Positions 1 to 41,278 of a stretch of DNA of 64,000 nt are shown piece by piece. The notes below the pieces were generated by a model that made no database searches, was not told where the DNA came from, and was given only the letters and a program-made list of their open reading frames with translations. Both the position numbers and the translations under genes were made by a program. Each line of letters starts with the position of its first letter. Within the stretch, counting starts at the first letter, position 1. Where the stretch lies: assembly GCA_044226015.1 (NCBI GenBank), contig JBGAHS010000001.1, positions 1,248,001-1,312,000 on the forward strand, read 5' to 3'. The stretch comes from Candidatus Obscuribacteraceae bacterium. Its GTDB lineage: Bacteria; Cyanobacteriota; Vampirovibrionia; Obscuribacterales; Obscuribacteraceae.

Positions 1-476
1 GTAAAAATCTTATCGGTTTCAACCAGCAAACTCCCAATTCGTCTTCTGTAGAGTCTTTTATCTTCGTCGCTCTTGCTCAATTCATAAAGAAAACAACTTC
101 TATTCAAGAGAAGTGTTACATGAGCCATAATTTGCCTAATTTGGATAGCAATCACTTCATCATCAAAAGCTAAGTAATTTGCTACTTTTGGACGTTTCCT
201 TTTCTTGGAAAAATCAGTTGGCGTATTGATCTCATCTGAGCTTGAGTCTTCATTTTCAGGACTCAGAACTTCATAGGAAATATGCCTAAATTCAGGCATG
301 CGAGCCACTTCCAATAGTTCTTCAACGTTCGCAAGGAGCTTATGCAAAAGTGGATTGAGCAACTTAATCCGCTCGGCAGGTTCTTCCTGCAATGCCCACA
401 GGGTGTACTTTAGAATCCACTCAATTTGCTCTATTGTTTCCTCTGTAGCAACATCACCATAGTTTTGCTTATTCAT
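1..476 (-). CDS. Putative immunity/partner protein of cassette 1 (runs off the window edge)
   Basis: Own translation MNKQNYGDVATEETIEQIEWILKY... is open to base 1. Its ATG overlaps the cassette 1 stop (TAATG). Confidence 0.6.
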   Translation of the reverse strand, partial: MNKQNYGDVATEETIEQIEWILKYTLWALQEEPAERIKLLNPLLHKLLANVEELLEVARMPEFRHISYEVLSPENEDSSSDEINTPTDFSKKRKRPKVANYLAFDDEVIAIQIRQIMAHVTLLLNRSCFLYELSKSDEDKRLYRRRIGSLLVETDKIF

Positions 477-1399
477 TATCTCCTCCCATTCGGTATCCAT
501 CGGGTAAAAGTTCTGTTCCAGAATCCTGTTTTGTACCAGTCTCCGCCGAGAGAAGGACAACCGGCCCTAGCCTTACATTCATCTACACATCTACGAAATG
601 GCCACCCTTGGGGACAATGTGTAGGCAGTTCTTTACCACAATCGTCGATGCATTTTTCTTCTACTTTTTTACATTTTGGGCTTAATGGGGTCCCCTCCCC
701 AGTTCCAGTGCGTGGACCGAACCTTGGACCCATGCTTCGCCCCATAGCATCCCAAAGATCAGTAAATGCGGGGCCAATTTCATGTCCATGTTCCTGTATC
801 CATTTTCCACCAATATAAATTGCCACTGCGCCACCGGCAACAATAATGATAACAGGAGCAACAACCACAGCCATACGACCATCAGGATCAATTTGATTAA
901 TGGGATCCGAATTCACATATTGGAACAGATTAGCCCCTGAAGTTTCTTGGATGATGTCTCTACTTATGAATCTAGCTAGAGTTGAGCTGTAACCTCTGTA
1001 TTCAGATAAGCTCAAAGACGCTCGCGCTTGAAAATAATAGCTTGTAAAAAGGAAGTCGGCAGCACTTGAGCCATTGATTTTAGTGACTTGGCCAAAAGGA
1101 TCGTAAGCGTATTGCGCTTCTATAGTAGTAGTGCTTGACACAGTTTTTGTCATCTCGCGTGTTGAGCTGAGGTGATCTGCTGTATAGAAGAAATTAGTGG
1201 AAGCTCCACTACTGAAATTAGATTGACCCAGTTTTAGAAATTGTTTTCCATTGTTGAGAGAGCCAGATGCATCTCTTTCTTCGCAACGAGTTTGCTCACA
1301 CCAAAGATGTTGTTTCGTCGACGTAACACTGCCACCCGTGCGCTCCTCAATTTTTGTGGCGCGCGAAAGTGCATCATACGAAAATTGGGTGATGTTCCC
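476..1399 (-). CDS. Orphan RHS C-terminal cassette 1; hydrophobic segment plus Cys-rich tip
   Basis: In frame from the conserved site (GNITQFSYD) through YDPFG, RFISRD and DPDG. Tip has CxxxC repeats. Confidence 0.85.
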   Translation of the reverse strand, partial: GNITQFSYDALSRATKIEERTGGSVTSTKQHLWCEQTRCEERDASGSLNNGKQFLKLGQSNFSSGASTNFFYTADHLSSTREMTKTVSSTTTIEAQYAYDPFGQVTKINGSSAADFLFTSYYFQARASLSLSEYRGYSSTLARFISRDIIQETSGANLFQYVNSDPINQIDPDGRMAVVVAPVIIIVAGGAVAIYIGGKWIQEHGHEIGPAFTDLWDAMGRSMGPRFGPRTGTGEGTPLSPKCKKVEEKCIDDCGKELPTHCPQGWPFRRCVDECKARAGCPSLGGDWYKTGFWNRTFTRWIPNGRR

Positions 1400-1529
1400 G
1401 GTGCAGGCAACTTGGATCCTCGATGTTTTCTGGTTGCGCTTGGTTTGGAGTATTTCGAGTGCTGCGTGTATTGCGACTGTATGCTATTCTTAAATCCAAA
1501 GGTCGCAGCAAGCAATAGGAGCGTAAAGT

Positions 1530-1991
1530 ATGACGAGATCAAGCTTGGAACAACGCTCTATACTGCCGACGCCCGCCGATATAGAAGTCGCTAAGGCTTC
1601 GGAACCGAAGATTTGGGACATGATTGCGGCGAAAAAATCACCGCCCAGATACACAGTTTCAGATAGCAGAGGCACTAGCATCGAGTTAAGCGAGGCCGTA
1701 TTTAAGGTGCTGCTGGAAGCACTTAGAGCGATGGCTTGTGGGAACGCAGTTATGCTGGCGCCGATTGAAGCCGAAGTGACAACACAACAAGCAGCTGAAT
1801 TGCTCAATGTGTCTCGTCCTTTTTTGGTTGGACTGCTGGAGCAGGGCAAAATTCCATTTCGCATGGTAGGCAGATATCGCCGAATCAAATATCAGGACAT
1901 CCTGGACTATCAGGCTCGCAGAAGTCACCGCCGCAAACAAGCAATGGGTGAGTTGGTTTCATAAGCGCAAGATCTTAAGCTTGGTTACTAG
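1530..1991 (+). pseudogene. Excisionase-like HTH protein (antitoxin of an HTH-PIN pair) with a premature stop
   Basis: TTQQAAELLNVSRPFLVGLLEQGKIPF motif. TAA at 1962-1964 is followed in frame by AQDLKLGY*. Confidence 0.75.
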
Positions 1992-1998
1992 ATAATTA

Positions 1999-4186: not shown

Positions 4187-4651
4187 TTAATGAAGTTCCA
4201 GCGCAAGCTGTCTTGATTTATGAGCCTTCATATGGATCAAAACCTTCCACTGCTTTCCGTCACGGGTCAGTTGCGCGCTCATAGATTCATAAATATGTTT
4301 ATTTTCTGGGGAAGTCGGAAATGGACTACGAAATTCCAACGGAAGATTTCCAATAGATTGAATACAAATGAGATTAAACATAGCGTTCTTGCTTTTTTTC
4401 AATGGTCTTATATTCTGCACTTTGCCTACTTCGTTGATCGAAAAAAAACACTGGCTTGAGGCTTCTTTAGCCGAGGTATCTATCTTTTCCGCACAAGCTT
4501 TTTGCACATTTTGAGCAAGAACATTCTCCATCTTGTGGTGCCAGTCCGCCCATGAAGGAGACTCATAAAAGGGCGCCGAAAGATCAGTGCTCCACGATGG
4601 TGTGATCACCGAGGCGGAAAAGAAAATGGCTAGAAGTGCTACGTTCCTCAT
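4187..4651 (-). CDS. Exported protein with a TonB-C-like domain; partner of cassette 2
   Basis: N-terminal signal-like stretch; FSINEVGKVQNIRPLKKS..PFP; 4-bp overlap with the cassette 2 stop. Confidence 0.55.
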   Translation of the reverse strand: MRNVALLAIFFSASVITPSWSTDLSAPFYESPSWADWHHKMENVLAQNVQKACAEKIDTSAKEASSQCFFSINEVGKVQNIRPLKKSKNAMFNLICIQSIGNLPLEFRSPFPTSPENKHIYESMSAQLTRDGKQWKVLIHMKAHKSRQLALELH

Positions 4652-5616
4652 GGCGTAACTTTCAATCTGATCTGTCGTGGAGGATTATATTCTTCGTAAG
4701 GCAGTCCTGACATAGTACGTGAGAAATTTTCCAGCAGCATGGAGTATTTCTCCCAGTCGGGTGTGGATCCCCGATGCGATGGAGGATCGTAATTTGGATC
4801 CTCAGGACTTTGAACTCCTAAGACTATTCCAAGAGCATGCCCTATCTCGTGAGCTAGATTGATTTTTGAGGGGCATTTGCGTCGTCGGTTGCCTTCAGAT
4901 GAATCATGGCCTAAGTGAATCATAATTGCCCCACCACTAAATTCTGTAGTCGAAGGAGCAGTTCCACCCTCAATGTCTTGCATAATGAAAATGTTTCGAT
5001 CTGAATTTTCCAAGAAGTCCATGACGCTGGGCATTTCCTTTTGGAGAGTTTGAAAATCGGAATTCATTTGATCATCCCCCGTCACCCAGAATTTCAATCC
5101 AAGTGGATCTGAAAATATAGTGGACATATTCCTTACATAGCCATAGAGATTGATGCCACCGCGTTCAGCGATTGGATCGCGGCTAATGAATCTTCCCAGC
5201 CCAGCATTATAAGCCCTATATACCGGCATGTTGAGTCCACTTCGAGCATGGGCATAATATCCAGCATACTGCATATCAGCTGACACGGAGCCACTCACGA
5301 AGGTTTCAGTCACCACACCATAAGGATCAAAGCCGTATCTAGTCTTAATGGCACCAGCTGAATCGGTGAGTTCTCTGCTAGAACCAAGGTGGTCGCGGGT
5401 GTAGAAATACTTCGGAGGCGTCCCTGAAGCGAAATTAGCCTGTCCCATAATAAAGAACTGCTTCCCATTGCTTAGACTGCCTGAGCCATCTCTTTCTTCG
5501 CAGCGTGATGAGCCGCACCAGACATGTTGCTTCGTAGAAGTGACACTACTAGCGGTGGTTTCCACAATCTTGACGCATCGGCTAGCCGCATCATACGAAA
5601 ATTGGGTGATGTTTCT
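4648..5616 (-). CDS. Orphan RHS cassette 2; HExxH zinc metalloprotease tip (M91-like)
   Basis: RHS core DHLGS, RFISRDP, DPLG. Tip LAHEIGHA...LENFSRTMSGLP. Confidence 0.85.
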   Translation of the reverse strand, partial: RNITQFSYDAASRCVKIVETTASSVTSTKQHVWCGSSRCEERDGSGSLSNGKQFFIMGQANFASGTPPKYFYTRDHLGSSRELTDSAGAIKTRYGFDPYGVVTETFVSGSVSADMQYAGYYAHARSGLNMPVYRAYNAGLGRFISRDPIAERGGINLYGYVRNMSTIFSDPLGLKFWVTGDDQMNSDFQTLQKEMPSVMDFLENSDRNIFIMQDIEGGTAPSTTEFSGGAIMIHLGHDSSEGNRRRKCPSKINLAHEIGHALGIVLGVQSPEDPNYDPPSHRGSTPDWEKYSMLLENFSRTMSGLPYEEYNPPRQIRLKVTP

Positions 5617-6432: not shown

Positions 6433-6434
6433 GT

Positions 6435-7143: not shown

Positions 7144-8103
7144 TCATCGAGTATTTTGGCGGTGCTTCTCTTCCGATACAGGTGGACGACAAGCTTCAAG
7201 TGCGGCTGACTTCGAACGCATGCTGATCTCCGCATAACGGTTTGTTGTATCTAAACTGACGTGACCAAGCCAGCCTCGAATAACATTCATTTCTACACCT
7301 GATTCAAGGAGGTGAATCGCTGTCGAGTGCCTGAATACGTGGGGAGAGACGGATTTTGGTGTCCCATCAACTCGCTTTTTGGAAATTTCTGTGGTGTACC
7401 TTCGAACGATTTTGTAGATTCCAAATCGAGTCAGAGCGTTTCCCTTCCGAGATTGGAATACCGAAACGTCCGGTTCATGTCCTCGCTGCAAAAGCAGCTC
7501 CCGAAGCGCAGCTGCCGTTTCTGACCACAGCGGGCAGAGTCGCCATTTACCTCCTTTTCCATACAGTCTGACAAGTAACCGCTCTAGATCAATCTGGTCT
7601 GAACGCAAACTCGCAATCTCCTGCACTCTTGCTCCCGTGTTGTACATGAAGAGCAGAAGCGTTTTGTCCCTTAGCGACAAATTAGAATTGGCATGAGAAG
7701 AAGCGCTTTTCAAAATAACACCTACTTCCTCTTTCTCCAAAAAGAATGTTTCAGGCGGATGACATCGTTTGCTTCGAATTGCCGAGATTCGTTTGGCTTC
7801 TGCGACGAATTCAGGTGCTCGAAGCGCCAGATATTCGAAAAATGTATGGAGCACTGCAAGTCGCTGATTGCGCGTTCGCACTGAACATTTGCGTTTTTCC
7901 TCTAACCAATTCAGGAATTGCAGCACAAGCTCCATTGTAAAATGCCTTTCTTCCAACTTAGTTACTTTGCACTTAGCCTGCTGTGACGCATAGAGCAAGA
8001 ATATGCGGAGGCAATCGCGGTAGCTTTTTACAGTTGAAACACGCAGCCCTCGCTGCATTGGCAAGTAATCAACAAAAAAGGATTGTAAAATTAAGCCGAT
8101 CAT
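7144..8103 (-). CDS. ritC: Tyrosine recombinase, third gene of the RIT trio
   Basis: TGARVQE, HVFRHS, LGH..TNRY; 4-bp overlap with the upstream gene. Confidence 0.9.
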   Translation of the reverse strand: MIGLILQSFFVDYLPMQRGLRVSTVKSYRDCLRIFLLYASQQAKCKVTKLEERHFTMELVLQFLNWLEEKRKCSVRTRNQRLAVLHTFFEYLALRAPEFVAEAKRISAIRSKRCHPPETFFLEKEEVGVILKSASSHANSNLSLRDKTLLLFMYNTGARVQEIASLRSDQIDLERLLVRLYGKGGKWRLCPLWSETAAALRELLLQRGHEPDVSVFQSRKGNALTRFGIYKIVRRYTTEISKKRVDGTPKSVSPHVFRHSTAIHLLESGVEMNVIRGWLGHVSLDTTNRYAEISMRSKSAALEACRPPVSEEKHRQNTR

Positions 8104-9086
8104 TTCAATTCCTCCTTCAACACTGGGGAAGCAAATTTGTGGAAGCGATGATTCGCCTCGTTTAACAAGTCGGTGGTGATGGTCAAATAAACTGCAGTAG
8201 ACTCCAGGCTCACATGTCCCATGAAAACAGATAAGTAGAGTAATCTCTGTGACGGATTTGCTCCTTCTCGGTACCAGCGCAACAAAGTGTTGACGGCAAA
8301 TGAATGTCGCAAGTCATGCAAACGAGGTGCCATTTCACCTTCAGAAGAGCTGATCTGCATTTGTAGTACAAGCTGATGAAAGATTTGACTGATTGTGCAA
8401 GGATTGATCGGACGACGTTCCTTTCCTCGAAACCAGAAAACTGGATCCAAGCCAGCCGACTTGTTGCCACACTCGTCGATGAATTCATTTAAGCGCTGGC
8501 CAAGCTTCGGCCCCATAGGTACCAGACGCGTTTTAGAAAACTTGGTCTCCTTGATAATGAGGATGTTTTTCTCAAAATCCACGTGCCCTATTTTCAAACG
8601 AGATATTTCACCCACTCTTAATCCAAGTCCATAAATCAGGGCGAATATCAATTGGTACATTTTTCCCCGATTCAGAGCATTTGGTGCATCAGGCAGTCGA
8701 CCTGCCAAAAGCAAGATCTCTTTAACTTCTTCATGCTTTAGAATGTGAGGTCTCAGTTGAGCAACTGCACGACGGGATACGGCGCGAAATGGAGAAAGAG
8801 GTAGTATTTCCTGACTAACCATCCACTCAAAGAAACGTCGGACAACACCAACTAAATGATTGTAGCTGCGGGGTCGAGTCCGTGTTCTTGACGCTAAGAA
8901 GTTGTCCAAAAGTTCGGCAGTCAATTGCTCCATTGAGGAAACGCTGCATTCAACCAGATAGCGATCTAGCAGTTGAAGGGCGCGTTCTTCCGTATGGAAT
9001 TTCTTGCGTAGTGAGCGTTTGTATTGCAAGAATTGCTCAATCGATTTTGAAAGAGGACTCTTAAAACCTGTCCATTGACTATTCAT
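8100..9086 (-). CDS. ritB: Tyrosine recombinase, second gene of the RIT trio
   Basis: LGLRVGE, HDLRHS, MGH..TAVY. Confidence 0.9.
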   Translation of the reverse strand: MNSQWTGFKSPLSKSIEQFLQYKRSLRKKFHTEERALQLLDRYLVECSVSSMEQLTAELLDNFLASRTRTRPRSYNHLVGVVRRFFEWMVSQEILPLSPFRAVSRRAVAQLRPHILKHEEVKEILLLAGRLPDAPNALNRGKMYQLIFALIYGLGLRVGEISRLKIGHVDFEKNILIIKETKFSKTRLVPMGPKLGQRLNEFIDECGNKSAGLDPVFWFRGKERRPINPCTISQIFHQLVLQMQISSSEGEMAPRLHDLRHSFAVNTLLRWYREGANPSQRLLYLSVFMGHVSLESTAVYLTITTDLLNEANHRFHKFASPVLKEELK

Positions 9087-10345
9087 ACAAGATCCTCCCC
9101 GAGCCCGTTCGCTAGCTCTCGAAGGGACTCAAGATCTACCTTTGAGTATATTCGGGTAGAATCGGCTGAACGGTGACCAACATAATCGCCAATTTGCTTG
9201 AAGGAGAATTGTGCTTCCACAAGTCTTTGCACACACGTATGCCTCAGAGTGTGCGAGCCGCTTCTTGGGACATCGATACCGGCTCTCCGCAAATAATACG
9301 ATGTTCGACAAGAAACACCCTGCCACGTCAAAGGAGCGAGTGGTGCAAGAACATGGAGGAAAATATGTCGCTCAGTTGTTTTTGGACGATCCTTTTTGAG
9401 ATACTCAAGTATCGCATCGCCACAGACTTTGGAAAGCGGATAAGCAGTTGAATGGCCAGCCTTCCGTTCTGGAATTCGCAATCGCTCAGCCTTCCAATCG
9501 ATGTCATCCAACGTAATAGCCGCTACTTCACGAGCGCGCAGTCCGTATGTCACGAGTAACAGAAGGATTGCATAGTCGCGCCTTCCAACAGATGTTCGCA
9601 AATCAACAGACTCTAGCATAAGTCGGACTTGATCCCACGTAATCGACCTCGGATAATCAGCGTGCTTGTACTTTTGAGGAGACTCCAGCGCTGTGCTTAG
9701 GTCCCTGTCAATTAAGCGCTCCCTGTATAGATACCTCAATAAAACTCTCACTGCGCTCGTAACGCTAACGAGGCAAGATTTTCCCATTTGATCTTTGATA
9801 TCTACAACAAAGCCACTAAGTATGGCTGGAGAAAGCTCATTGACGTGCTTTACTTTTATTCGCTCTAAATAGGTTTGAAAGATACGCAAAGCATAATCGT
9901 AAAGACGCACCGTCCACTTGCTCAACCCTCGTTCATCTTGCAAGTACTTGAAGAACATGTCTGTGAACTCAAAGCTCGGTGCCGCACTGTAGCGAGTTCG
10001 AGTGATGCATACATAGTCGGGTAAGACAACCTTGATCATTTGTCGCAGTGGACCGCTAACTTCCTTCATTAGGGCGACTTGCCTGTATTTGCTTCGGTTG
10101 CTTTTACTTTGTTCTTGGTGACGAGCGAACTCCATGATGAAAGGTGGTAGATCCGAGATGCTCTTGGCGCCCCGCTCTTGAGCATAGTTGGCGAAATTGA
10201 TTAGTATTGGTACTCGACGTGTAATCGTTTTTGCAGAATAGCCTCTTTCTTCGAGCCATTTTACGTAAAGCTCGATGCTATCTGAAATCCAACACTGCTT
10301 TATTCGATCAACTGTTTGGGGTTTTAAGAAGTAGCGTTCTAACAT
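9083..10345 (-). CDS. ritA: Tyrosine recombinase, first gene of the RIT trio
   Basis: YGLRARE, HTLRHT, VGH..TRIY. Start moved to MLERYF (ATG at 10345), which has an AAGGAG RBS. Confidence 0.9.
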   Translation of the reverse strand: MLERYFLKPQTVDRIKQCWISDSIELYVKWLEERGYSAKTITRRVPILINFANYAQERGAKSISDLPPFIMEFARHQEQSKSNRSKYRQVALMKEVSGPLRQMIKVVLPDYVCITRTRYSAAPSFEFTDMFFKYLQDERGLSKWTVRLYDYALRIFQTYLERIKVKHVNELSPAILSGFVVDIKDQMGKSCLVSVTSAVRVLLRYLYRERLIDRDLSTALESPQKYKHADYPRSITWDQVRLMLESVDLRTSVGRRDYAILLLLVTYGLRAREVAAITLDDIDWKAERLRIPERKAGHSTAYPLSKVCGDAILEYLKKDRPKTTERHIFLHVLAPLAPLTWQGVSCRTSYYLRRAGIDVPRSGSHTLRHTCVQRLVEAQFSFKQIGDYVGHRSADSTRIYSKVDLESLRELANGLGEDLV

Positions 10346-10508
10346 GACAATCTCCTTTCGAAACGGTTCCGAAGAAGATATGCCGCAACCAAAGCAAAAA
10401 TTATGTGTCCCAAAACTCAATAGAGACTGACGCTTCTGCGTGCGGTCGCAACAAAAGGAACATAATCAAGAAGGGCACAAAAGCCAGATTATGTTTCGTG
10501 GAACATAA

Positions 10509-12290: not shown

Positions 12291-13529
12291 TTAACCGTAA
12301 CCGAAACGAATGCCTTTTCCGTAATTTTTCGTATGGGGAATTCCTTCTGGATTCCAGGGGTGGTCAATGACAGGAGGCAGTGGTGACTTGCCCTTGCAAT
12401 CAGCAGGGTCTTCTGGTTCCGCGCCTGTCCCAGGTCCGCCTGGAGACCATGGGATAGAAGCCCCAGGAGCAAATCGATTGGGATACCCGATTCCAACTGA
12501 TTTAAGTAAATACGGCCATATTTGATTACTGGTAGTACCAGTACCGGTAACTCCTGGTACCAATTGATAAGGGTGCGGATGTTCCAGAAAGTACGCCTGC
12601 AATATAAAAGCCCGATGGATTAACTCATTTATTTGGGCGTCGGTTGCTTCGAGCGGTTCAGGATCTAATCCGCCCCATAGATTAGTTCCAGGCCGTTTAA
12701 CATCATTTCTAATCGTAACTCTCATGTTTCCAGTGAAATTAGAACCATACATTCCGTTAATGGCCCATTTTGTGCCATCGGTTCTTTCTATGTAGATTCC
12801 TGTATGGATGCTAAAAATGATGTTGTATAAATAAATCTTATCGAGCCCCATGGGGTCGATGGAGCTGATTGGGTTTCCATCCACGTAGCCATATAAATTT
12901 CCATTACCTTTGGGGTCTCTACTAAGCCATCTTCCTAAACCTGCGTTGTATTGCCGAAAGAGGGTTAAGTCGAACCCTGACCTCTGGTTTATGTACATCC
13001 CAGCATATTGAAAATCCGCGTCCTGACTGCCAGCAATCCGAGTGACCTGTCCATAAGGACTATAGCCATACTGAGCTTCTATGGTAGTGGTCCCACTGTT
13101 CGTCTTAGTCATTTCTCTTATGGACCCCAAATGATCCCCGGTGTAAAAGTAGGTGGTAGGCGTTGAGCTTGCAAAGTTGACCTGCCCCCCGTCAAAGAAC
13201 TGCTTTCCATTACTCAAGCTACCAGATATATCCCGCTCCTCGCATCTTGCTGTGTCACACCAAATGTGTTGCAGCGTCGACGTGACACTACCTGCGGTTC
13301 GCTCTTCGATCTTCGTAGCGCGAGAGAAGACATCATACGAAAATTGGGTGTTATTTCCCGAGCCCGGATAAGTAATCTGAATCAGCCTGTTTTCGGCATC
13401 CCAGGAGTAGGTGTTTGTTCCGTCGCTCGTCATATTGCCATTCGCGTCGTATTGCAGTGTTGCAGATGACGCCGAGTTGATGGTTATCGGATACGAATTG
13501 GTTGCCGCTGTGCCGCCGCCACTTGCCAC
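12291..13529 (-). CDS. Orphan RHS cassette 3, carrying extra upstream main-gene sequence
   Basis: 13331-13523 is near-identical to 29571-29763. DPMG is followed by a tip of unknown function. Confidence 0.85.
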   Translation of the reverse strand: MASGGGTAATNSYPITINSASSATLQYDANGNMTSDGTNTYSWDAENRLIQITYPGSGNNTQFSYDVFSRATKIEERTAGSVTSTLQHIWCDTARCEERDISGSLSNGKQFFDGGQVNFASSTPTTYFYTGDHLGSIREMTKTNSGTTTIEAQYGYSPYGQVTRIAGSQDADFQYAGMYINQRSGFDLTLFRQYNAGLGRWLSRDPKGNGNLYGYVDGNPISSIDPMGLDKIYLYNIIFSIHTGIYIERTDGTKWAINGMYGSNFTGNMRVTIRNDVKRPGTNLWGGLDPEPLEATDAQINELIHRAFILQAYFLEHPHPYQLVPGVTGTGTTSNQIWPYLLKSVGIGYPNRFAPGASIPWSPGGPGTGAEPEDPADCKGKSPLPPVIDHPWNPEGIPHTKNYGKGIRFGYG

Positions 13530-18909: not shown

Positions 18910-18934
18910 TACTAGTCCTCCATATACCAATCTT

Positions 18935-22634: not shown

Positions 22635-22636
22635 AA

Positions 22637-24781: not shown

Positions 24782-24782
24782 A

Positions 24783-30680: not shown

Positions 30681-31317
30681 ATTGAAAGGACTCGAGGCAA
30701 CTATCGCTCAACTTTACGATTCCTTCGCAGAATATAGGCAAGGAAACATGAATTTGAGCAAGAGGCTCAAAAACATTAGCAACTCCGAAATATATCAGTA
30801 TGCCTCAGATGTGATAAATATTGCGGAGGTGGACGAATATCTGCATTACCTCCCGCGAATTTTGGAGTGTGCTACGGAATCTCAATGGCAGTTAGGGGAC
30901 ATCTTTCAAAATATCGGTATCTGTCTCCATTTTGGAACTGTAAGTTCTGAGCAAATTTCAACTTTGCGAGAATTCTTGCTGGAATGGTGGAGAATTCAAA
31001 TCCAGTCCCCTTGCACGATTACAACAATTTCTCCGATTGCTGAATTCTTGATAGACCTCAACCGAGGATTTGACGATTTAGAATGGCTTCTAGAGGTATG
31101 GACCGCTGAAAATAGCGATAACGCCTTTGCCAATCTTAGTGGAATGATCTATACCGCAGTGATGCATAAGGCATTATTTTCTGAGGAATTGAGCAGGCAA
31201 ATAACTCGATGGTTGAGTTGTGAATCTACTAGAAGTTGGATTGCTTTTGGAATGCAACAATACAGTGGACAGCCGTGGTGTAGCGAGTTAGTAGAAAATC
31301 TCAGCTACATCTCCTAA
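30664..31317 (+). CDS. Putative immunity protein of the main RHS tip
   Basis: Overlaps the RHS stop; helical protein with YLHYLPRILE. Confidence 0.7.
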   Translation: MAERNKLKGLEATIAQLYDSFAEYRQGNMNLSKRLKNISNSEIYQYASDVINIAEVDEYLHYLPRILECATESQWQLGDIFQNIGICLHFGTVSSEQISTLREFLLEWWRIQIQSPCTITTISPIAEFLIDLNRGFDDLEWLLEVWTAENSDNAFANLSGMIYTAVMHKALFSEELSRQITRWLSCESTRSWIAFGMQQYSGQPWCSELVENLSYIS

Positions 31318-31435: not shown

Positions 31436-31886
31436 CTCTTGTAGCAAAGCTTCAGAGATTTTTTGCTTATCACTGTTGACTATAGGCATGCTATGCGTGT
31501 TTCAAAAGTCGTCGAATTGCGTCTGCGTACGCAAGGATCAAAGAACTATAGACTGAACGAGGAAGAAATGATTTCCATGCTCTAGTAATAGAGTAATAGA
31601 CAAGGTTTGTTAGGACAACCTGAAAGAACCGAGGATGCGGCTACGCGCAAAAAAAATAATTGTGTTTGAGGCGTATCTGCAAAGCAGCAGACTAAGCTGA
31701 ATTAAGAATTAAAAGTGATCAGACACCTAAGGAACCTGCAAGATAACAGTCAAGCACCCGCTAGCACCAGATCATTTTTCTTTTGCAGCACGGCACATGT
31801 TCCGACTTTTGCTTAGTGCATTGACCTCATTTCATCAGCGAGATCAAGTCCTCACGCACTGGAAACATCACCCAATTTTCGTATGA
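31436..31886 (+). repeat. 451-bp inverted repeat, right copy; includes recombinase fragment copy C (31436-31523) and the cassette 11 site
   Basis: Reverse complement of 23658-24108. Identity ends exactly at the 3' end of the 18-bp core. Confidence 0.92.
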
Positions 31887-32787
31887 CGGCTTCGGAAAGT
31901 GCATCAAAATTGTAGAGACGACCGCCGGGTCCGTAACGAGTACTAAAAGCTTCGTCTTTCGGGGCAAGGGGAGGTGCGAAGCTCGTGATGCGTCCGGGAA
32001 CGTGACCGCTCAATTCTTTGCACTGGGACAGACGATAGGCGGCAGCTCCTGCTATTACACAGTCCGGCACGACGGCTCCAAGTGCGAGATGACGAACAGC
32101 ACCGGCACCATTGTCTGGCAGCAGAGCTTTGATCCTTATGGACTTCCGACGACAATAATCAACACCACCGCTGGTGACTTCGGTTATTGCGGTTACTACG
32201 TGCATAGTCGTTCAGGGCTGAATTTAACACGCACAAGGGCCTATAGTGCCAGCCTTGGCAGATTCATCAACCGTGATCCGATTGAGGAAGCCGGGGGCGT
32301 GAATCTTTATGCATACGTTGCAAATGACCCGGTGGAATGGTCAGATCCGTCCGGACATAACCCACTTGCAGGACTATTGGTGGGTCTCAGTCCGGAGGGT
32401 GCAGCAGCATTGGCTGGTGCGTTAACGGCGCTTGGAATTGCTGGGAACTGGCTGCAGAACAATGCCCAGCAGTTAGGCAAGAATATCGGCGATTTTATGA
32501 ATCAGATGGGTAAAAACCGCGCCGATAAAGACCAAGAGCGCGAGGAAAAGCGCGGCAAAGCGGCTAAGCCGAAAAAATGTGATCGAAAACCGAACTATCA
32601 GAATACGCCTCAAGGGCAACAAGCGCAGAACGCACAAGCGGAGGCAGCCAAGCAAGCTGCGGAACAGGCAACCGGGCAGGAAATGACACCTGATCAAGAG
32701 AGACAATTTCACGATAACATTAGTCATCAGGATCTCGGGTTCGAGGATCTGGTTGGTGAAGCGACGCGCATTCTAAACGGAAACTGA
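31861..32787 (+). CDS. Orphan RHS cassette 11; divergent core, helical tip
   Basis: GNITQFSYDGFGKCIKIVE..., RFINRDP, DPSG. Tip AQNAQ..DQERQFHDNIS. Confidence 0.85.
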   Translation, partial: GNITQFSYDGFGKCIKIVETTAGSVTSTKSFVFRGKGRCEARDASGNVTAQFFALGQTIGGSSCYYTVRHDGSKCEMTNSTGTIVWQQSFDPYGLPTTIINTTAGDFGYCGYYVHSRSGLNLTRTRAYSASLGRFINRDPIEEAGGVNLYAYVANDPVEWSDPSGHNPLAGLLVGLSPEGAAALAGALTALGIAGNWLQNNAQQLGKNIGDFMNQMGKNRADKDQEREEKRGKAAKPKKCDRKPNYQNTPQGQQAQNAQAEAAKQAAEQATGQEMTPDQERQFHDNISHQDLGFEDLVGEATRILNGN

Positions 32788-32788
32788 C

Positions 32789-33262
32789 ATGCCAAAAATC
32801 GGTCCAGAATATTACGGCGCAGTCAGCCTGCTTTTCATGAGCGAGAGTTCCGATCCTAGTGAAATCACTAAGTTACTAGGGACTGCTCCTACCGAAAGCT
32901 GGAGGAAGGGAGACCATCCAACTGGCAGCTTTAAGCGTAAGCAGTCGACCTGGCGATTGAAGAATCCAAAGGAAGACACCTACCGCCAATTAGAGAGCGA
33001 GATTATTTATTGGTTGGATTTTCTGCGTGATAGGCAGGAGCCCTTAACGCAGGCGAGGCTCCTCGGCTGGAGCTGCATCTTAGACTGCTTCATCTCAGCG
33101 CCAAGCACCATTACGCTGAACTTCACTGCCGATAAGTTGCGACTGTTAGCTGAGATCGGTGCCGATTTGTCAATCAACTGTTTTCGAACAACTCCAGAAC
33201 GATTTGAAAGGGGACTAAGGCAAAGTAAGCGATCTAGGCAAGTTGGTGGGAACAGTGATTAG
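32789..33262 (+). CDS. DUF4279-like immunity protein
   Basis: DPSEITKLLGTAPTESWRKGD..STWRL; starts 1 bp after the toxin stop. Confidence 0.7.
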   Translation: MPKIGPEYYGAVSLLFMSESSDPSEITKLLGTAPTESWRKGDHPTGSFKRKQSTWRLKNPKEDTYRQLESEIIYWLDFLRDRQEPLTQARLLGWSCILDCFISAPSTITLNFTADKLRLLAEIGADLSINCFRTTPERFERGLRQSKRSRQVGGNSD

Positions 33263-33700: not shown

Positions 33701-33883
33701 TTGCTTTTATCGCCGCTAAATGTTGTTTGTTCATCAAAGGGCTAATACCTCCAACTGACATTGACAATTTTCTTTGTTCACTTCTGAGTATCCGTCCGCC
33801 ACGGGACGTGGTTGTTAACCTCCGTGAAAATATGAGATCACTATTGTGTTAGTGATACTGAGTTTGTGATGATTGACAGTTTG

Positions 33884-35458
33884 CTAAGTGATGAAGCTCG
33901 TGGCTTTCTTCCAACGATCCGGAAGGAATTGATCAATCTCAGACAACTTTGTCTGATTGATCTTGGCGAAGACATCAGCCAAGTATTCAACGGGGTTCAA
34001 TCCATTCCGCTTTGCCGAGGCTATCAGTGTGAAGTGTATTGCAAGGGCTTTGGCTCCTGCTTCAGACCCCGCAAACAGGAAGTTCTTTCTAGACAAAACG
34101 AATTGTTTGATTTCGCGTTCCGAGGCATTGTTATCGACTTCGATCTCCGGATTTTTAAGAAAGCGCGTAAGAGCTCTCCAGTGATTCAAAGAATAGTTAG
34201 CAGCCTCGGCCAAAAGATGGCTGGGCGAAAACAATTTCTTGTTTTTAGAGTGAATGTGCCGAAGCTCTCTCATCAATGGCTTCGAGAATCTTCGGCGAAG
34301 CGCGAGTCTGGCATCCGGGCTCAGCTTCTTTCCCCGTTTCTCAATTTTGTAAATGCGCTCGTAAATGTCGAGCATCTTTCCCGCAATCTCCAATTCCATG
34401 ATTTGAGCGTTGAAGATTCTGCGCCTGGCGTGTGTGTTGCAGCCAGCTTCAGTGGCGCCATTACCGAGTTCATCCTTCTCGAACAGGGCATCGAAACCAC
34501 TGGCCGCATCAGCTTGAATGATGCCAAAGTAGCCTTTGAAGAAATCTTTGTTTACTTGGAAATTAAGTGACTTCGAATAGAGGAAAGCCACAAGCTTATG
34601 CGAGGTGTCGCCGCGGCACACAATCATTTTGCTTCTCCGAATCTTTTTCATGTTGCTGGGAGTTCGGTCTTGAACTTTGATTTGGGTTTCATCGGTTTGT
34701 ACTACTCTGGATTTCAGAATCTCGCGTTTGATCAATTCGTAGAGAGGTTCAACTGCCAGCGACAATGCGATGAACCAGTCGCACTGTGTAGAGCGAGGAA
34801 TCGGAATAGAATCCCGAGCAAACTTTTTCTCTTGTCTGAAGTTTGGCAAACCGTATTCAACCTTGTCGCTGACAATTTGCGCCAGAAGAGTAGGACCAGC
34901 GTAACTGCCAGGAATTGGCAGTTCGGGCTTATGGGCTTTACGAATATACTGTTTGCATTTTGGGCACGCTCTTGTTTCCTGCTGGTGCTCGATGTGCTTC
35001 AACGAACGAAGTATGGTTTCAAGTTCGTGGGTGACTTTGTTGCAAACGAATTTTGTTTCGACGTTACAGTTAGGGCAAATTCTCTCACTATCGGGAACCA
35101 GGTGCTGCGTGATTTCATCAACGGGAAGATCGGCCAACGCTGTGTCTCGAACCAGCTCGTCATCATTTCGTTGTCTACGGTCCGAAACTGTCGGCGCTGG
35201 TCTAGGATTTCTTCCTTCTGATTTGCTGCCGAATTGACTCCGATCTCTATTTTTCTTTTTTGCAATTAGCAAGTCTAGTTTCTCTTGGACCTGTGAAAGC
35301 TGGCGCAAGAGTTCTGCGTTGCCTTCGAGAGCAGTCTGCAGAGTTTTTTGCATCTCTGAAAGCTGTTTTTTTAGTAGCTCATTTTTTTCGCGCTCGGCTT
35401 GGAAGAGCTGTTTGAAGTCTGATTCGATTTCTGGTTCGGATTCTGGCAATGCGAGCAC
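33884..35458 (-). CDS. tnpC: IS66 transposase TnpC
   Basis: Coiled coil, FGSKSE, zinc finger, TDET, CNTHARR, DNNASEREIK. Confidence 0.95.
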   Translation of the reverse strand: MLALPESEPEIESDFKQLFQAEREKNELLKKQLSEMQKTLQTALEGNAELLRQLSQVQEKLDLLIAKKKNRDRSQFGSKSEGRNPRPAPTVSDRRQRNDDELVRDTALADLPVDEITQHLVPDSERICPNCNVETKFVCNKVTHELETILRSLKHIEHQQETRACPKCKQYIRKAHKPELPIPGSYAGPTLLAQIVSDKVEYGLPNFRQEKKFARDSIPIPRSTQCDWFIALSLAVEPLYELIKREILKSRVVQTDETQIKVQDRTPSNMKKIRRSKMIVCRGDTSHKLVAFLYSKSLNFQVNKDFFKGYFGIIQADAASGFDALFEKDELGNGATEAGCNTHARRRIFNAQIMELEIAGKMLDIYERIYKIEKRGKKLSPDARLALRRRFSKPLMRELRHIHSKNKKLFSPSHLLAEAANYSLNHWRALTRFLKNPEIEVDNNASEREIKQFVLSRKNFLFAGSEAGAKALAIHFTLIASAKRNGLNPVEYLADVFAKINQTKLSEIDQFLPDRWKKATSFIT

Positions 35459-35657
35459 CTTCGGCTGATTGCCTAATTATGATCCATGATGTATCTAAAG
35501 GACAGAGGAGGCAGCAATCAATTTGAGGAGATCAGCGAGATTTCATTTAGCCATCATATCTGGTGGCTAAAATATCGAGACGTTGCAATTCAGGTTCTGA
35601 TATCGTTATATTATGTTTCACTCCTCGTTTCGTCAAAAGCTTATGAATAGGCAATTT

Positions 35658-36074
35658 TCAGCGAGCCAGAGTTTTCACAAGTACTTTTGGGGTAGTCCCA
35701 GCCTTTCGATCCCGGTGAGGTTGGCGATATCGTTTTAGCCGTTTTACAGAGGCAGTGTCTATTCCTTCAAGAAGCATGATCAGATCCGCGCGCTCAATTT
35801 GAACTGGTTCGTACTCCCCATTGACGAACTTAACTTCTGGAAATTGGAAAGTTCCAGACTCAAGCCGCTTAGAATAAATAGCCCAGCCATCCAGGTCCCA
35901 CCACAATATCTTGATGAATTTGCTACGCCCTCCGTGAAAGATGAACAGGCTTCCGGAATATGGGTCTTCAGCGAAGTGATTGCGTGCAAGTTCAAGCAAC
36001 CCATCAAACGAACGCCTCATGTCGGCTGGTTTTGTGCAAACAAAAATGCGAGTGGCTGGAGTAAGTTGAAACAC
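35658..36074 (-). CDS. tnpB: IS66 accessory protein TnpB
   Basis: PADMRRSFDGL..KILWWDLDGW..KRLESG. Confidence 0.93.
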   Translation of the reverse strand: MFQLTPATRIFVCTKPADMRRSFDGLLELARNHFAEDPYSGSLFIFHGGRSKFIKILWWDLDGWAIYSKRLESGTFQFPEVKFVNGEYEPVQIERADLIMLLEGIDTASVKRLKRYRQPHRDRKAGTTPKVLVKTLAR

Positions 36075-36089
36075 TTTGAATTCTCCGTT

Positions 36090-36665
36090 CTATTTATGCT
36101 CGACAGGTTTGCTGTTACGTAATCCGTTAATTAGTCGCACGATTAGATCCACTGATGCGGTATTGCTACAAGAAATGCATGTGCCATCGATTAGTGTTAC
36201 TAGAATCGTTTCGTCGAGAGACTTTACTGGTTCCGAAGACGGTGGGGAGTTACCCGATATCTCCACTGGAATGAAGGCTGGGGGCTGAACTGCTTGCCCA
36301 GTTTGCGCCGGTCTTCGTCCGAGCTTGGTCTGCCAGTAGTGCAAGGAACCACTGGTAATCCCATGCTCTTTGCAGAAATCCCTAATGCTGCCACGATATT
36401 GCTCCAAGTCAGAAAAGATTTGAGTCCAATATTTGGTTCGGGATTTAAGTTGTGAGGGGCGGTTCTCCCCGATGCTTATTTCTGATTCGAGTCCTTTTTC
36501 TTCATCGCGCCTGCGGAGTTCTGCTCGCCAAAATTGAAATGTATTTGGCGATATGTTTTCAATTGCGCAAAACTTTTTGAATGGCAGTTGGCTCGCTTGA
36601 AATTTCTTCAATATCTCGCGCCAGTATCGCTCCCTTTCGGGATCCACCCTTCGTTTCTTTCTCAT
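36090..36665 (-). CDS. tnpA: IS66 TnpA with two HTH-like repeats
   Basis: FCAIENISPNTFQFW and FCKEHGITSGSLHYW, then FIPVE. Confidence 0.85.
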   Translation of the reverse strand: MRKKRRVDPERERYWREILKKFQASQLPFKKFCAIENISPNTFQFWRAELRRRDEEKGLESEISIGENRPSQLKSRTKYWTQIFSDLEQYRGSIRDFCKEHGITSGSLHYWQTKLGRRPAQTGQAVQPPAFIPVEISGNSPPSSEPVKSLDETILVTLIDGTCISCSNTASVDLIVRLINGLRNSKPVEHK

Positions 36666-36846
36666 CCCATTCCTTAACCAAACCAGAATCGCACGATTCC
36701 TGAACCGGCTTCGATTCTTTGCTAATGCTTGTTTGTTCCGACAACAGTCAATCACTTCGGTACTCTTGTCGCGAACTTCTTTATCAAATCATTTTTGCGC
36801 AGATGCCTCTACCACGCTCCACCTCGGACGGATACACTTCTGAAGC

Positions 36847-36964: not shown

Positions 36965-37163
36965 TTGCCACCGATGAAACAAAAAAACCTTGATCGAAGA
37001 GCTCTAGGAAGCTGAGGTAAAAGACCAGGCACTTGCAGCAATGAAACTTGGACGACAAGGCTTCAGAAATGTTTTGCTTATCACCGTTGCCTACCGACAT
37101 GCCATGCGTGTTTCCGAGGTTGCCGAATTGCGTCCTTCTCACCCGGCGGTTTGGCGTGAATAA
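36965..37163 (+). pseudogene. FimB/FimE-like recombinase 5' fragment (copy D, best preserved)
   Basis: EVKDQALAAMKLGRQGFRNVLLITVAYRHAMRVSEVAELRPS matches box I of catalytic-domain-only tyrosine recombinases. Confidence 0.8.
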
Positions 37164-37198: not shown

Positions 37199-38167
37199 GG
37201 AAACATCACCCAATTTTCGTATGATGCACTTTCGCGCGCCACGAAAATCGAGGAGCGCACTGCTGGCAGTGTCACTTCGACGAAGCAACATGTATGGTGT
37301 CGCTCTGAAAGAGTAGAGGAGAGAGACGCAACAGGGTCCTTGAGCACCGGAAAGCAATTCTTGGCTCTGGGACAAAGAAACTTCGTGAGTGGAGTTGGAA
37401 GTAACTACTTCTACACTTTGGATGCTTCACCCGGAAATGTAAGAGAAATGATTGACGCCGCTGGCAGCGTGATTGCGCAGTATAGCTATGATCCCTACGG
37501 AGTCAAAACAAAGATCCAAGGCTCCGGAGACTCAGATTTTCAATACGCCGGATATTACCTGAATTCAAGATCGGCTTTATACGCAACGGCCACACGATTT
37601 TACAATGCGAACGGAGCTAAGTTCATCAATCGAGATTCGATTGGCGAAAACGGCGGTGTAAACCTTTATGGGTACGTGGACAATAACCCAATTTCATCTA
37701 AAGACTCCAGCGGGATGGGCACAATAGCCATGCGGGTGCCACCGCTAATGATTCCTCGTCCCATGCCAGTTCCTAGGTCAAAACCACAAGAACCTCCAGC
37801 ACCAACAAATCCTCATCCAGGTAAGCACAATAACAGCGGGGACGACGAGGACAAAGACAAGGACGACGACAAAGGTGATTGCGATGACGGAGGAGGCGGC
37901 GGCGGTGGTGGTGGCGGCGGTGGTGAGCCAGGAGAGGGCAATCCAGGGTCTTCTGATGATGACGACGTTGTTCGAAAATGTATCTTAAGACAGATCGCCA
38001 AAGCTGCCGGTCAGAGAACCATCGTAAAAATGGTTTACCCCAATAACAAGGGACAACGATGGAACGATGTTAATCAAAATAAGGCTTTTTCGAAAATTGA
38101 TTACAAGCTTCAGGTAAACATTGGGCTATGTCTTCGTGGAATTAACCCTGACGCATTAGGGCAATGA
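37199..38167 (+). CDS. Orphan RHS cassette 12; Pro/Asp/poly-Gly linker plus tip
   Basis: In frame from the site; KFINRDS, DSSG. Confidence 0.85.
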   Translation, partial: GNITQFSYDALSRATKIEERTAGSVTSTKQHVWCRSERVEERDATGSLSTGKQFLALGQRNFVSGVGSNYFYTLDASPGNVREMIDAAGSVIAQYSYDPYGVKTKIQGSGDSDFQYAGYYLNSRSALYATATRFYNANGAKFINRDSIGENGGVNLYGYVDNNPISSKDSSGMGTIAMRVPPLMIPRPMPVPRSKPQEPPAPTNPHPGKHNNSGDDEDKDKDDDKGDCDDGGGGGGGGGGGGEPGEGNPGSSDDDDVVRKCILRQIAKAAGQRTIVKMVYPNNKGQRWNDVNQNKAFSKIDYKLQVNIGLCLRGINPDALGQ

Positions 38168-38839: not shown

Positions 38840-39386
38840 GTTGTTTCACCGATTTCTGTAAGAAGTACATCGTCTGCGACCTTCAAACGACTCTTGTCTT
38901 TGGTTGAGCGTGTTGGCACTCTCTTGCATGCTTGTGTTATGCCCCGCATTCAATTTAGTTGAACGCTTGACTCGGGTGGAACTTATTTTGAGAGACTCAC
39001 CTGGCTCAAAAAGGCAAGGATAAAGCAATATTTTTGATCTTGTTTCTCTGGATCTGTTGACGCATGTTTGCCTGCGTGTGCTCTTCCGGCTATGCCCCTG
39101 TTGAGAGCTCTGTTCTCAGGCAACTACTATTGGGTAGTGTGTAAAAAGTAAAAGACTGCATGAAGACAAACAATTGTCCAAGTCTGCATTAGTGGGATAT
39201 GATTCAACTTTGACGCTCAGGTGATAAACATGTTTAAGATCAGGCGCTGGCAGTATTGGTGAGGGAGGACATGTTAATGTAAGTGTTCTGCTTACTCGAA
39301 GTCGGCAAAAAATCGTTGCGCCGAGTGATTGCACCGAGGAGGAAAAAGTCAAATTCAAAAGGCTGTAGATTCGATTACGCAATCAA

Positions 39387-39660
39387 TCAAGCAACAGGTT
39401 CTTGATGAAATTTACTCACTTCATCCTCAATAATATCCTCGGACTGCTCTAAGCGGCGGCTTAGCATTGCGACTTCCGCATTCAATCGCTTGATCTTTTT
39501 CGCTTCAGCACTCTCCTTCGGTCCACGCTTTCTCGGCTCCAGGGACCTCTGTGCTCGATCAGCTCGCCGCTTCTGCAAAGTGGCAGCGTAAGTTTTGGAG
39601 AGCGCGGAAAAGCTCAACCATCTCCTGTGTTGCTCCAAGATGCAACGGCATTCGAATTTC
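39387..39660 (-). mobile_element. IS3-family OrfA-like remnant
   Basis: LEPRKRGPK..KIKRLNAEVAMLSRRLEQSEDIIE coiled coil; degraded. Confidence 0.5.
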
Positions 39661-39830
39661 CTTTCTAAGCTTTAGAAGATTCTCCTTGAGTCTGGCTAAT
39701 GGCGTCTCAAGTTTCTTACAGCCAAAATCGCAAAACGGAATTTAAAGAGCCTCAATTAATCGTCTAAAGAACTTCAGAATACTCTAGCCCAGAGTATTTA
39801 ACAACCTCTGAAATCCATTCAAATTGCACC

Positions 39831-40817
39831 GGGAAAAACACCCAATTTTCGTATGATGCACTTTCGCGCGCCACGAAAATCGAAGAGCGCGCTGCTGGCA
39901 GTGTCACTTCGACGAAGCAACATGTATGGTGTGGAACGGCTAGATGTGAAGAAAGAGATGCGTCGGGAAGCTTGAGCAATGGCAAGCAATTCTTCTCAAC
40001 AGGACAAGCTAACTTAAGTGGTGGCACTCCGACAAAGTTCTATTACAACCGAGACCACCTCGGCTCCATACGGGAGCTAACTGATTCAACTGGAGCCATT
40101 AAGACAAGATACTCTTTTGACCCTTATGGTCAGGTTGCAGAGACATTTGTGGCAGGCAGCATCTCGGCTGACATGCAGTATGATGGGTATTATGTGCATG
40201 GAAGAAGTGGACTCAATATGCCGGTCTACAGGGCTTATAATGCTGCTCTTGGTAGATTCTTCAATAGAGATCCCATCGACGAAAAAGGCGGTTTGAACTT
40301 GTTTGCTTACACGCTGAGCAACCCTGTAGGATTTACAGACCCTTTGGGATTGGAATGCCCAAAAGGACCACTAGTAGACGCTATCGTCAAAAAATTCGAA
40401 ATGGCTAAAGCCTTGCAAAAGAAAACGTCCATGGGCGGACTTGAAACTGGTGGCATAGGTGTATGGAACAATGGCAAGTTTACTACCTTTAAATGGGGAA
40501 CACCAACAACCTCATCGTCTTTCATCCTGGATACGTTTCCCGGCATGACTGATGTAATTCAAAATCATTTAAAAGTGCCTCCTTTGACTGATGCTGATTT
40601 AGAGAACAACCCTTCCATGACCGCAATGGAAGATGTTCAAAAGTCCGTTGATAATTCGAGCCGTTTGTGGACATTAGGATCTGATGGCGATATTACGATG
40701 TACAATGGAACCACTCATACGGGACAATGTACTGTACAAACTTGTATTTACGATAGTGCAGGTAATTTTAAACGCGAGTGCAAAGCCGATTGCACTAAAA
40801 TGGGCAGTGCTCATTAG
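39831..40817 (+). CDS. Orphan RHS cassette 13; possible JAB/MPN-like tip
   Basis: DHLGS, RFFNRDP, DPLG. Tip ETGG..IQNH..PS...ED is a degenerate JAB pattern. Confidence 0.82.
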   Translation, partial: GKNTQFSYDALSRATKIEERAAGSVTSTKQHVWCGTARCEERDASGSLSNGKQFFSTGQANLSGGTPTKFYYNRDHLGSIRELTDSTGAIKTRYSFDPYGQVAETFVAGSISADMQYDGYYVHGRSGLNMPVYRAYNAALGRFFNRDPIDEKGGLNLFAYTLSNPVGFTDPLGLECPKGPLVDAIVKKFEMAKALQKKTSMGGLETGGIGVWNNGKFTTFKWGTPTTSSSFILDTFPGMTDVIQNHLKVPPLTDADLENNPSMTAMEDVQKSVDNSSRLWTLGSDGDITMYNGTTHTGQCTVQTCIYDSAGNFKRECKADCTKMGSAH

Positions 40818-41278
40818 ATTTGTCCGTCGTGAATAATCTCGATGCCCTTTATCCAATCATGTTTTCCTATAATTAGGACGCGCCTAAAGCCCAGCCTTTT
40901 CAGAAAATCAAGAATGCTTTCTTGATTCTGATTAAATAACTCCAGGGCAAAATTTACTTCGACAACAATGATGTTTCTCGAAGAAGAATTGTTTTCTATC
41001 AATTCAAGAATTTGCTGTCTGCGATAACAATTTACACTGTTGCCATTTTTCATAGGTCCTAGAGGGGTGCTGTTACCTAGTAATTCCCTATAGCAATCAA
41101 TTCCAAAAAAGCTAAAGCGGCGGTCTGCTACCGCTTGAACTCTAACCACCTCTTTTATTGATTTTTTGTCTTTGTGATAACCAACAGTAATTAAACTCTC
41201 TGGGCGAGAGGCAATTGCACTGTTTGGAAAAATAAATTGAGATATACAGTAGAACAATAAAATTACAAGCAATTTCAT
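40814..41278 (-). CDS. Exported protein convergent with cassette 13
   Basis: Signal peptide MKLLVILLFY..AIA; stop codons overlap by 4 bp. Confidence 0.6.
   Translation of the reverse strand: MKLLVILLFYCISQFIFPNSAIASRPESLITVGYHKDKKSIKEVVRVQAVADRRFSFFGIDCYRELLGNSTPLGPMKNGNSVNCYRRQQILELIENNSSSRNIIVVEVNFALELFNQNQESILDFLKRLGFRRVLIIGKHDWIKGIEIIHDGQI

Follow-up and report, generated by a model that had tools for sequence, protein, structure and literature searches.

The 64,000-nucleotide stretch of a Candidatus Obscuribacteraceae genome analysed here (the window) carries an RHS gene with its current C-terminal tip and, on both sides of it, arrays of orphan tips that share one 18-bp site with the gene. 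At a probability of about 0.65, we read this locus as a library of RHS C-terminal tips and downstream immunity-type genes, each starting from one fixed site, whose tips are swapped by an arm-less tyrosine recombinase through inversion of the segment that bears the RHS body. The reading draws on the observed layout of the locus, the anatomy of the site, the linkage of a recombinase family to RHS genes, the loss of the arm-binding domain from the enzyme, and two switches of tip that map onto the site. An earlier note on the window had proposed site-specific switching. The fixed boundary, an invariant core, a site anatomy like that of sfx in the R64 shufflon, the switches at the core and the linked recombinase family speak for this proposal; inversion, not itself observed, is the likeliest mode of exchange.

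The site and the layout of the tip arrays

The genome under study (G000, an 8.19-Mb assembly that is 92% complete) contains the window on contig C11. All 12 exact copies of the 18-mer reported for the window in the earlier note were recovered, at the same positions and on the same strands, compared with 0.08 expected by chance; none of 100 shuffles attained 12. The degenerate copy, previously placed at ~16271, exists with 4 mismatches and lies precisely at 16274-16291. The search of the whole assembly that the note had proposed gave 24 copies, 23 of them exact and the other with one mismatch; all lie on C11, 17 at the window locus and 7 at a second RHS locus (C11:81-101 kb). The tip array described for the window is real but not confined to it: the locus extends leftward by 5 further minus-strand sites (C11:1239445-1247602), in addition to the sites of the second locus.

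All copies of the site are read in one frame and translate to the same short segment of RHS protein, located ~170 codons ahead of the point where the conserved core ends. The claim that intact tips could be fused in frame to the RHS body agrees with this. Among the 12 orphans in the window, nine have open frames of 296-353 aa, and the other three (16274, 18359 and 22131) are broken. As had been noticed, coding similarity to the body ends within ~10 bp upstream of the core in eleven of these 12 orphans, the degenerate one included. The exception, the cassette at 13333, retains 173 bp of RHS body at 97.7% identity, and is also the only one among 22 core-bearing orphans that does not begin at the site (21/22).

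Within the site, a 7-bp core, CACCCAA, is invariant in 24/24 copies, and the whole 18-mer is identical in 23/24, since the 11 bases after the core (the right arm) vary only once. Base -1 and all bases to the left of it vary between the body and the orphans. The site of R64, sfx, likewise combines a core of 7 bp with one conserved arm, on the right, and one variable arm, on the left (PMC11852207; this and the other published systems are taken as described in the passages of the cited sources that concern them). From its sequence the site thus reads as sfx-like, with a putative position of strand cutting in the core. The observation that wobble positions are fixed inside the core and vary nearby also held: all five core codons are monomorphic over the 24 copies, and none of the 46 conserved codons downstream is, all of them having synonymous variants (Fisher p=4e-7, with copies that are not independent). 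At the site adjacent to the integrase described below, the left arm mirrors the right arm at 9/10 positions, compared with 3-5 at other sites (chance ~0.02 over 24 sites and 12 registers). The register was picked after the data had been seen, and the spacer preferred in an earlier scan was one base off (mean 5.4 of 11), so the symmetry is supportive but not a proof. Outside C11, six RHS orphans of a second sequence family (contigs C3 and C13) begin at CACCCAA and have a related right arm, and eight further copies on C3 and C5 carry synonymous variants of this core.

Most orphans are inverted relative to the body, 14 of 17 at the window locus and 5 of 6 at the second. In total, 19 of the 23 orphans of both loci are inverted and upstream of the body, unlike the co-oriented downstream orphans of classical arrays. 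The second locus shows the intact layout: leftward tips, a site and a leftward integrase gene are followed by gene A, gene B and the RHS body, all rightward, then a site and rightward tips. The part from the integrase to the body is also present, with a body of the window type, in X2, a sequencing run from another study that holds a related strain. There, a contig of 8957 nt (matched between two comparisons by its size and depth) joins the window-type body (~92-98% identical) to the integrase gene of the second locus, located 4.65 kb upstream; the gene and its adjacent site are 97% identical to the second locus (48 differences in 1578 nt). Because this contig joins body and integrase, we take the intact unit to have two divergent halves, with tips, site and integrase on one side and the two genes, body, site and tips on the other, and conclude that the window has lost ~5.6 kb. 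The lost segment, present in X2, comprises one tip, one site, the integrase, two genes and the RHS N-terminus.

Accordingly, the main gene of the earlier note does carry the site at 29744 but is 5'-truncated. Its 2057-aa open reading frame (ORF) aligns with the 2322-aa RHS protein of the second locus only once residue 95 (position 24788) is reached; missing are the first 336 residues of the intact paralogue (C11:93101-100069), which hold a Peptidase_C39-like domain, found in the paralogue only, and what appears by eye to be a signal peptide. A contig of another run, X1, the possible source sample, crosses the deletion junction with 0 differences. In this damaged state the window copy could undergo shuffling only in trans, with the second locus supplying the enzyme.

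One of the two genes upstream of the intact RHS gene (C11:90921-93123) has no Pfam match, and the other has Laminin_G_3 and Fn3-associated domains; possibly they encode surface partners of the RHS protein.

The linked integrase and its relatives

An intact tyrosine recombinase gene (PF00589, C11:89522-90643) lies at the second locus, its stop codon 47 bp from a site. We consider it very probable that this integrase is the enzyme of the site and acts there by site-specific recombination. Its catalytic set is intact by alignment, and it lacks the Arm-DNA-bind_3 domain, which is present in both of two relatives scanned. Its six best database homologues are also arm-less and 107 of the 120 homologues listed carry the domain, so that the arm-less form appears to be a small subfamily; the nearest relatives of the enzyme are arm-bearing integrases. 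A structure model comprises core-binding and catalytic domains only, with residues 1-40 of low confidence, and matches Xer, Brujita, Tn1549 and lambda integrases; in a sequence search of solved structures XerA was the sole match. The catalytic tyrosine is followed by ~40 residues, modelled as one helix and a low-confidence tail, and hence by no extra C-terminal domain of the Rci type. An integron integrase was rejected (TIGR02249, 20.5 bits against a cut-off of 265).

Among 301 genomes of the class, the arm-less subfamily was found in G000 and one other genome, G006, only. The latter (locus L017:1641-3675, on contig C15) has a second arm-degenerate integrase, divergent from a single orphan that starts near the position seen in G000. 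In the integrase tree, built by a quick method, the G000 and G006 enzymes form long branches, and their pairing may be false. Homologues in viral contigs were limited to 21 distant loci with 26-41% identity.

The earlier note had looked to a FimB-like enzyme. A genome search did not bear this out: G000 holds FimB-like fragments only (3 matches), and none of its 19 PF00589 matches is such a gene. It is most improbable that the site, itself real, is served by another enzyme, be it XerC/XerD (49303-50274, C11:1055291), the element at 7144-10420 or a lost FimB-like gene. These candidates are all tyrosine recombinases in or near the array, and FimB-like fragments precede four cassettes, but none of the candidates occurs at the second locus. 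By its scores the XerC-like gene at 49303-50274 belongs with XerC/XerD, and it stands among housekeeping genes, 9.5 kb from the nearest RHS core. Full-length relatives of the FimB-like fragments have no RHS match in 19 loci of ~3 kb, two of them beside apparent transposase genes. Judged by sequence, the fragments are a remnant resembling a transposon-borne recombinase and not the enzyme of this system. The XerC-like gene, the three-recombinase element and the IS66 element of the right array are best read as bystanders.

The integrase family is present in 69 of 104 genomes of the taxonomic family, and it tracks RHS genes. An RHS core lies within 6 kb of 35 of the 49 best non-self integrase matches, all from Obscuribacterales relatives, and of 21 of the top 22; for comparison, 2.5% of G000 lies within 6 kb of an RHS core. 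In this count the kin are not independent and some loci had been fetched for their RHS matches, while the score ranking was followed without omissions. In the tree, one clade has an RHS neighbour in 28 of 29 cases and its sister group in 0 of 7. In 15 cases the integrase of the relatives ends 81-364 bp before the orphan match; this motif-rich spacer is reduced to only 47 bp in G000. The layout of the relatives fits a small element, consisting of a tip, an immunity gene and an integrase, that enters an RHS gene and displaces its old tip. This suggests that tip-delivering integrative cassettes are the ancestors of the G000 system.

Exchange of tips and its possible mechanisms

Two switches of tip are located at the site itself. 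A 451-bp repeat, present in the left array (23658-24108) and the right array (31436-31886), shows 100% identity through the final base of the 18-mer, after which the two copies continue into unrelated tips. X2 keeps the upstream region 23658-24790, yet has another tip from five bases past the site; it differs from the 23658 cassette at 10 of the 43 positions 23611-23653 and at no more than 17 in the rest of the 1237-nt piece. The left array contains inverted fragments of the RHS body, one at 13351-13523 and another upstream of 5591, the latter a 39-bp exact piece accompanied by a recombinase fragment. The tip at 18359 is 92% identical over 749 bp to the tip at 37207 in the opposite array, and 96% identical to the tip at C11:1247602, left of the window. 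The inverted body fragments, the 451-bp repeat and these three paralogous tips point to traffic between the opposite arrays. X2 shares the outermost right tip together with its flank (contigs covering 39904-40854 with 2 differences and 40827-41400 with 0), as expected for an end that inversion cannot move. In addition, X2 has no cover over 30132-33451, which includes the current tip, a hint of another tip on the X2 body but not evidence of it.

The enzyme would bind the conserved right arm and exchange strands within the 7-bp core. If the site of the body recombined with one of opposite orientation, body and integrase would turn over as one segment and the body would be fused to the tip behind that site, with the frame kept and no DNA lost. 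After one flip the other array would become the inverted one, so that two inversions at most would bring any tip to the body. With body and integrase back to back between oppositely oriented tip arrays, no process other than inversion would be required to reach all tips. Excision or capture, which the earlier note had invoked for the right cassettes, is not needed: a flip of the central segment makes the right tips inverted relative to the body and thereby reachable, and no immunity gene would be lost. New tips may enter by integration or homologous recombination. We propose that the system arose when an arm-bearing integrase, carried on small co-oriented cassettes (tip, immunity gene, cargo and integrase), entered RHS genes and pushed the old tip downstream; a single rearrangement could then have placed the integrase divergently next to the body, and once the arm domain was lost an invertase of simple sites could have remained.

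A number of observations weigh against switching by inversion, and several of them favour integration only. Under this alternative, which we hold to be rather unlikely, the main gene would be an attB site, the orphans would be attR sites with a shared left arm, and the divergent layout would be a relic of rare or single inversions with no ongoing flipping. Integrase-RHS pairs in the relatives are co-oriented in 32 of 35 cases, which fits integration and not inversion, and the distance of 81-364 bp between integrase and orphan in 15 cases points the same way. In the relatives, the similarity of orphans to the body sets in at a constant point, 28 bp upstream of where the site lies in G000 (17 of 30 begin within -26 to -31, and conservation falls from ~90% to ~50% across this boundary). 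In G000 a common left-arm motif reaching to about -31 is present in orphans only and is needless for a pure inversion system. Also, the 24 mostly unrelated C-termini must stem from outside. Neither an inverted isomer nor an alternative junction of body and tip was seen in the five runs compared, which, like all 7 runs located, were available as assembled contigs and have depths of ~3-13, with minor forms dropped; other joints in this comparison were explained by paralogous cassettes. Integration only does not account for the inverted orientation of most orphans at both loci, the back-to-back integrase and body at the second locus and in X2, the body fragments and identical 451-bp piece in the opposite array, or an enzyme without an arm domain next to a shortened spacer.

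Other observations favour homologous recombination. The upstream edge of the site is as sharp as the earlier note had described, but its 3' side is not: synonymous identity past the core decays over the next 50 codons from 1.0 through 0.83 and ~0.6 to 0.4. Two tips are identical for 94 nt, and the cassettes at C11:82887 and 1239445 have 926 bp upstream in common and remain alike for ~70-100 bp beyond the site. The gradual decay and the mosaics with breakpoints 70-100 bp downstream suggest that homologous recombination or conversion in the shared coding region also operates and contributes to the mosaics of tips. It is improbable, in our view, that the whole system is classical RecA-dependent exchange of orphan rhs genes, in which gene conversion would have homogenised a stretch of sequence most strongly at its 18-mer end, and the integrase would be a bystander island. 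This published model (PMC2935791, PMC3967940) would also suit the three tips that are 92-96% identical over 720-750 bp. However, it expects core fragments of variable length, and 21 of the 22 orphans start at one base. The median run of exact identity from the core is 24 nt, compared with 522 bp at 95% in Salmonella (PMC3967940). Moreover, two switches map onto the site itself, and the integrase clade tracks RHS arrays over many genera.

The remaining points against inversion concern the site, the enzyme and the cargo. The exact 18-mer was found in 0 of 40 genomes of relatives. A dyad scan did not single out the -28 boundary of the relatives (7th of 240 registers in orphans), and an AGAT[CT] motif there was not significantly enriched (25/30 vs 27/42, p=0.06). 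Position is the only evidence that pairs the integrase with the site, and the window copy holds no integrase gene and a truncated body. A named toxin domain above the cut-off was found in just one tip among those scanned (Ntox37). The label of toxin relies on the few domain matches (Ntox37, and Imm53 and DUF4279 downstream) together with established knowledge of RHS proteins. In Joint Genome Institute (JGI) metagenomes, the degenerate site pattern gave 26 single matches, 0 of them in the RHS frame.

With inversion as the preferred mode, the system works like the R64 and Rin shufflons and is a member of neither, having another enzyme lineage, an inside-out layout and another cargo. As in R64 (Rci, sfx sites and pilV tips; PMC11852207), a constant N-terminus is fused in frame to alternative C-termini, a tyrosine recombinase stands beside the array (here at the second locus and in X2), and sites of matching anatomy occur in both orientations. 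In contrast to R64, the tips are RHS tips with immunity genes, 18 sites are spread over 50 kb instead of R64's 7, the constant region and recombinase lie inside with the tips outside on both sides, and the enzyme derives from arm-bearing integrases and has no extra C-terminal domain, as judged without a direct alignment with Rci. The Rin shufflon of Bifidobacterium prophages (PMC6109161) also has an arm-less tyrosine recombinase and predicted inversion between short asymmetric sites before variable 3' segments. In the tail module of those prophages the variable segments are flanked by the recombinase on one side and the constant gene on the other, whereas here they lie outside both; the cargo of Rin is a receptor-binding protein, and its isomers were seen in reads, unlike here.

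Orphan rhs-CT arrays (PMC2935791, PMC3967940) share with the present locus an RHS body that carries the current tip, together with a series of silent tips, and a small gene behind each tip. What sets the present locus apart is the fixed start, the inverted orientation of most tips and the linkage to an integrase clade. Integrase-like genes near Rhs loci of Snodgrassella and Gilliamella were proposed, untested, to aid Rhs capture (PMC5727410); the passages on these loci give no site, fixed boundary or inversion. Some Stenotrophomonas Rhs clusters are flanked by integrases (bioRxiv 10.64898/2026.07.13.738213). The rAID of Bacteroidales (PMC12247911) likewise combines a tyrosine recombinase with an adjacent array of interbacterial-conflict genes and conserved intergenic motifs, but consists of co-oriented orphan immunity genes only and rebuilds no toxin gene. 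Islands with dusA-associated integrases (PMC4482086) also enter an integrase-specified site within a coding sequence; here the incoming piece would bring a new unrelated C-terminal domain and so alter the product. As in elements of the lambda or P4 type, the integrase gene lies next to a fixed boundary (47 bp away in G000, near -28 in relatives), but the G000 enzyme has no arm-binding domain.

Searches of the open-access literature brought up no RHS shufflon, nor any work that treats Obscuribacter together with Rhs. Gain and swap of RHS tips have been ascribed to homologous recombination since 2009, and PMC2935791 states expressly that no integrase was known alongside Rhs. For the question of how tips are exchanged, the locus provides one named enzyme and a site delimited to 18 bp, along with a link that holds across the family. 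In Salmonella, recombination deletes the old immunity gene, a problem raised in PMC3967940, which switching by inversion, if true, avoids. Inversion would also outline a route from an integrative element to a shufflon, and offer a candidate multi-site invertase, from a context unrelated to Rci, for genome engineering. More tentatively, at somewhat less than even odds, an RHS-specialised clade of Obscuribacterales integrases may deliver toxin-immunity ends as minimal cassettes; here, arm-less and locked to the body, its member could have become an active, loss-free shufflon with up to 18 choices per locus, by which a clonal population would switch weapons and keep every immunity gene.

Other features of the window locus and the genome

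The tip cassettes, which at their C-terminal ends are mostly unrelated to one another, and the insertions between them are listed in the table. We take the three-recombinase insertion at 7144-10420 to be a RIT-type element.

Table. Coordinates of the RHS gene, tip cassettes and insertions in the window.
Feature	Position	Strand	Remarks
Left-array tip, site 1374	476..1393	-	open 305 aa
Left-array tip, site 5591	4648..5610	-	open 320 aa; downstream ORF 4187-4651
Three tandem tyrosine recombinase genes inserted in left array, passenger	7144..10420	-	PF00589 matches
Left-array tip, site 13333	12291..13523	-	open 353 aa, after 173 bp of inverted RHS body (97.7%)
Left-array tip, site 14941	14070..14960	-	open 296 aa; downstream ORF 13598-14068
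Decayed tip, degenerate site 16274	15641..16291	-	
Broken tip, site 18359	17651..18378	-	
Left-array tip, site 19929	18619..19948	-	open 337 aa; then Imm53 immunity gene (PF15580 E=9.5e-34)
Broken tip, site 22131	21298..22150	-	frame stops after 136 aa
Left-array tip, site 23658	22308..23677	-	open 346 aa, Ntox37 (PF15535 E=1e-19); then 108-aa ORF
Left arm of 451-bp perfect inverted repeat	23658..24108	-	ends at the last base of the site
Deletion junction	24788..24790		~5.6 kb absent relative to X2; X2 contigs 9 and 10 both diverge here
RHS body and current tip, 5'-truncated	24788..30680	+	RHS_repeat, Rhs_assc_core; 79% identity to paralogue from residue 95
Crossover site in main gene, putative	29744..29761	+	7-bp core and conserved right arm
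ORF behind current tip	30664..31317	+	likely immunity gene by position; no Pfam match
Right arm of 451-bp inverted repeat	31436..31886	+	then a different tip
Right-array tip, site 31869	31867..33262	+	open 306 aa; then DUF4279 gene (PF14106 E=3.8e-15)
IS66 element inserted in right array, passenger	33785..36835	-	Pfam; 99.97% copy on C3
FimB-sized tyrosine recombinase fragment	37008..37136	+	shorter copies at ~5680-5750, 24021-24097, 31445-31523
Right-array tip, site 37207	37205..38167	+	open 320 aa
Outermost right-array tip, site 39839	39837..40817	+	open 326 aa

The tips at 18935-19948 and 22637-23677 have ~70 glycine-rich residues in common after the RHS core and then different end domains; the glycine-rich stretch is a second, later swap point. 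The left array also contains, at 2354-4079, a reverse-transcriptase fragment (RVT_1, E=4e-15) and a 363-aa ORF with no Pfam match.

Elsewhere in the genome, two pairs of contig ends (C13 end with C3 start, C3 end with C5 end) break inside RHS tips at corresponding positions; the paired ends are 89% and 95% alike, and the tips point away from the break. Each pair, if joined, would form a further divergent array whose centre is missing from the assembly; the C13/C3 set carries the 7-bp core. Contig C2 is circular, 70 kb long with a 140-bp terminal repeat, and has a gene for an RHS protein of 2886 aa with a two-mismatch site (C2:19672-30149) and, 2.4 kb downstream of the RHS core, a tyrosine recombinase of 200 aa.

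The tip arrays stand on a chromosome contig near rpoB, and the rpoB and rpoC genes of the window are split, in keeping with a place of the organism among the Obscuribacterales. A tandem array of ~16-bp units (50881-51083) lies between the XerC-like gene and the rpoB region. Upstream of rpoB, at 52470-52962, there are four to five copies of a 107-108-bp unit, each containing a short inverted repeat and, after it, a T run.

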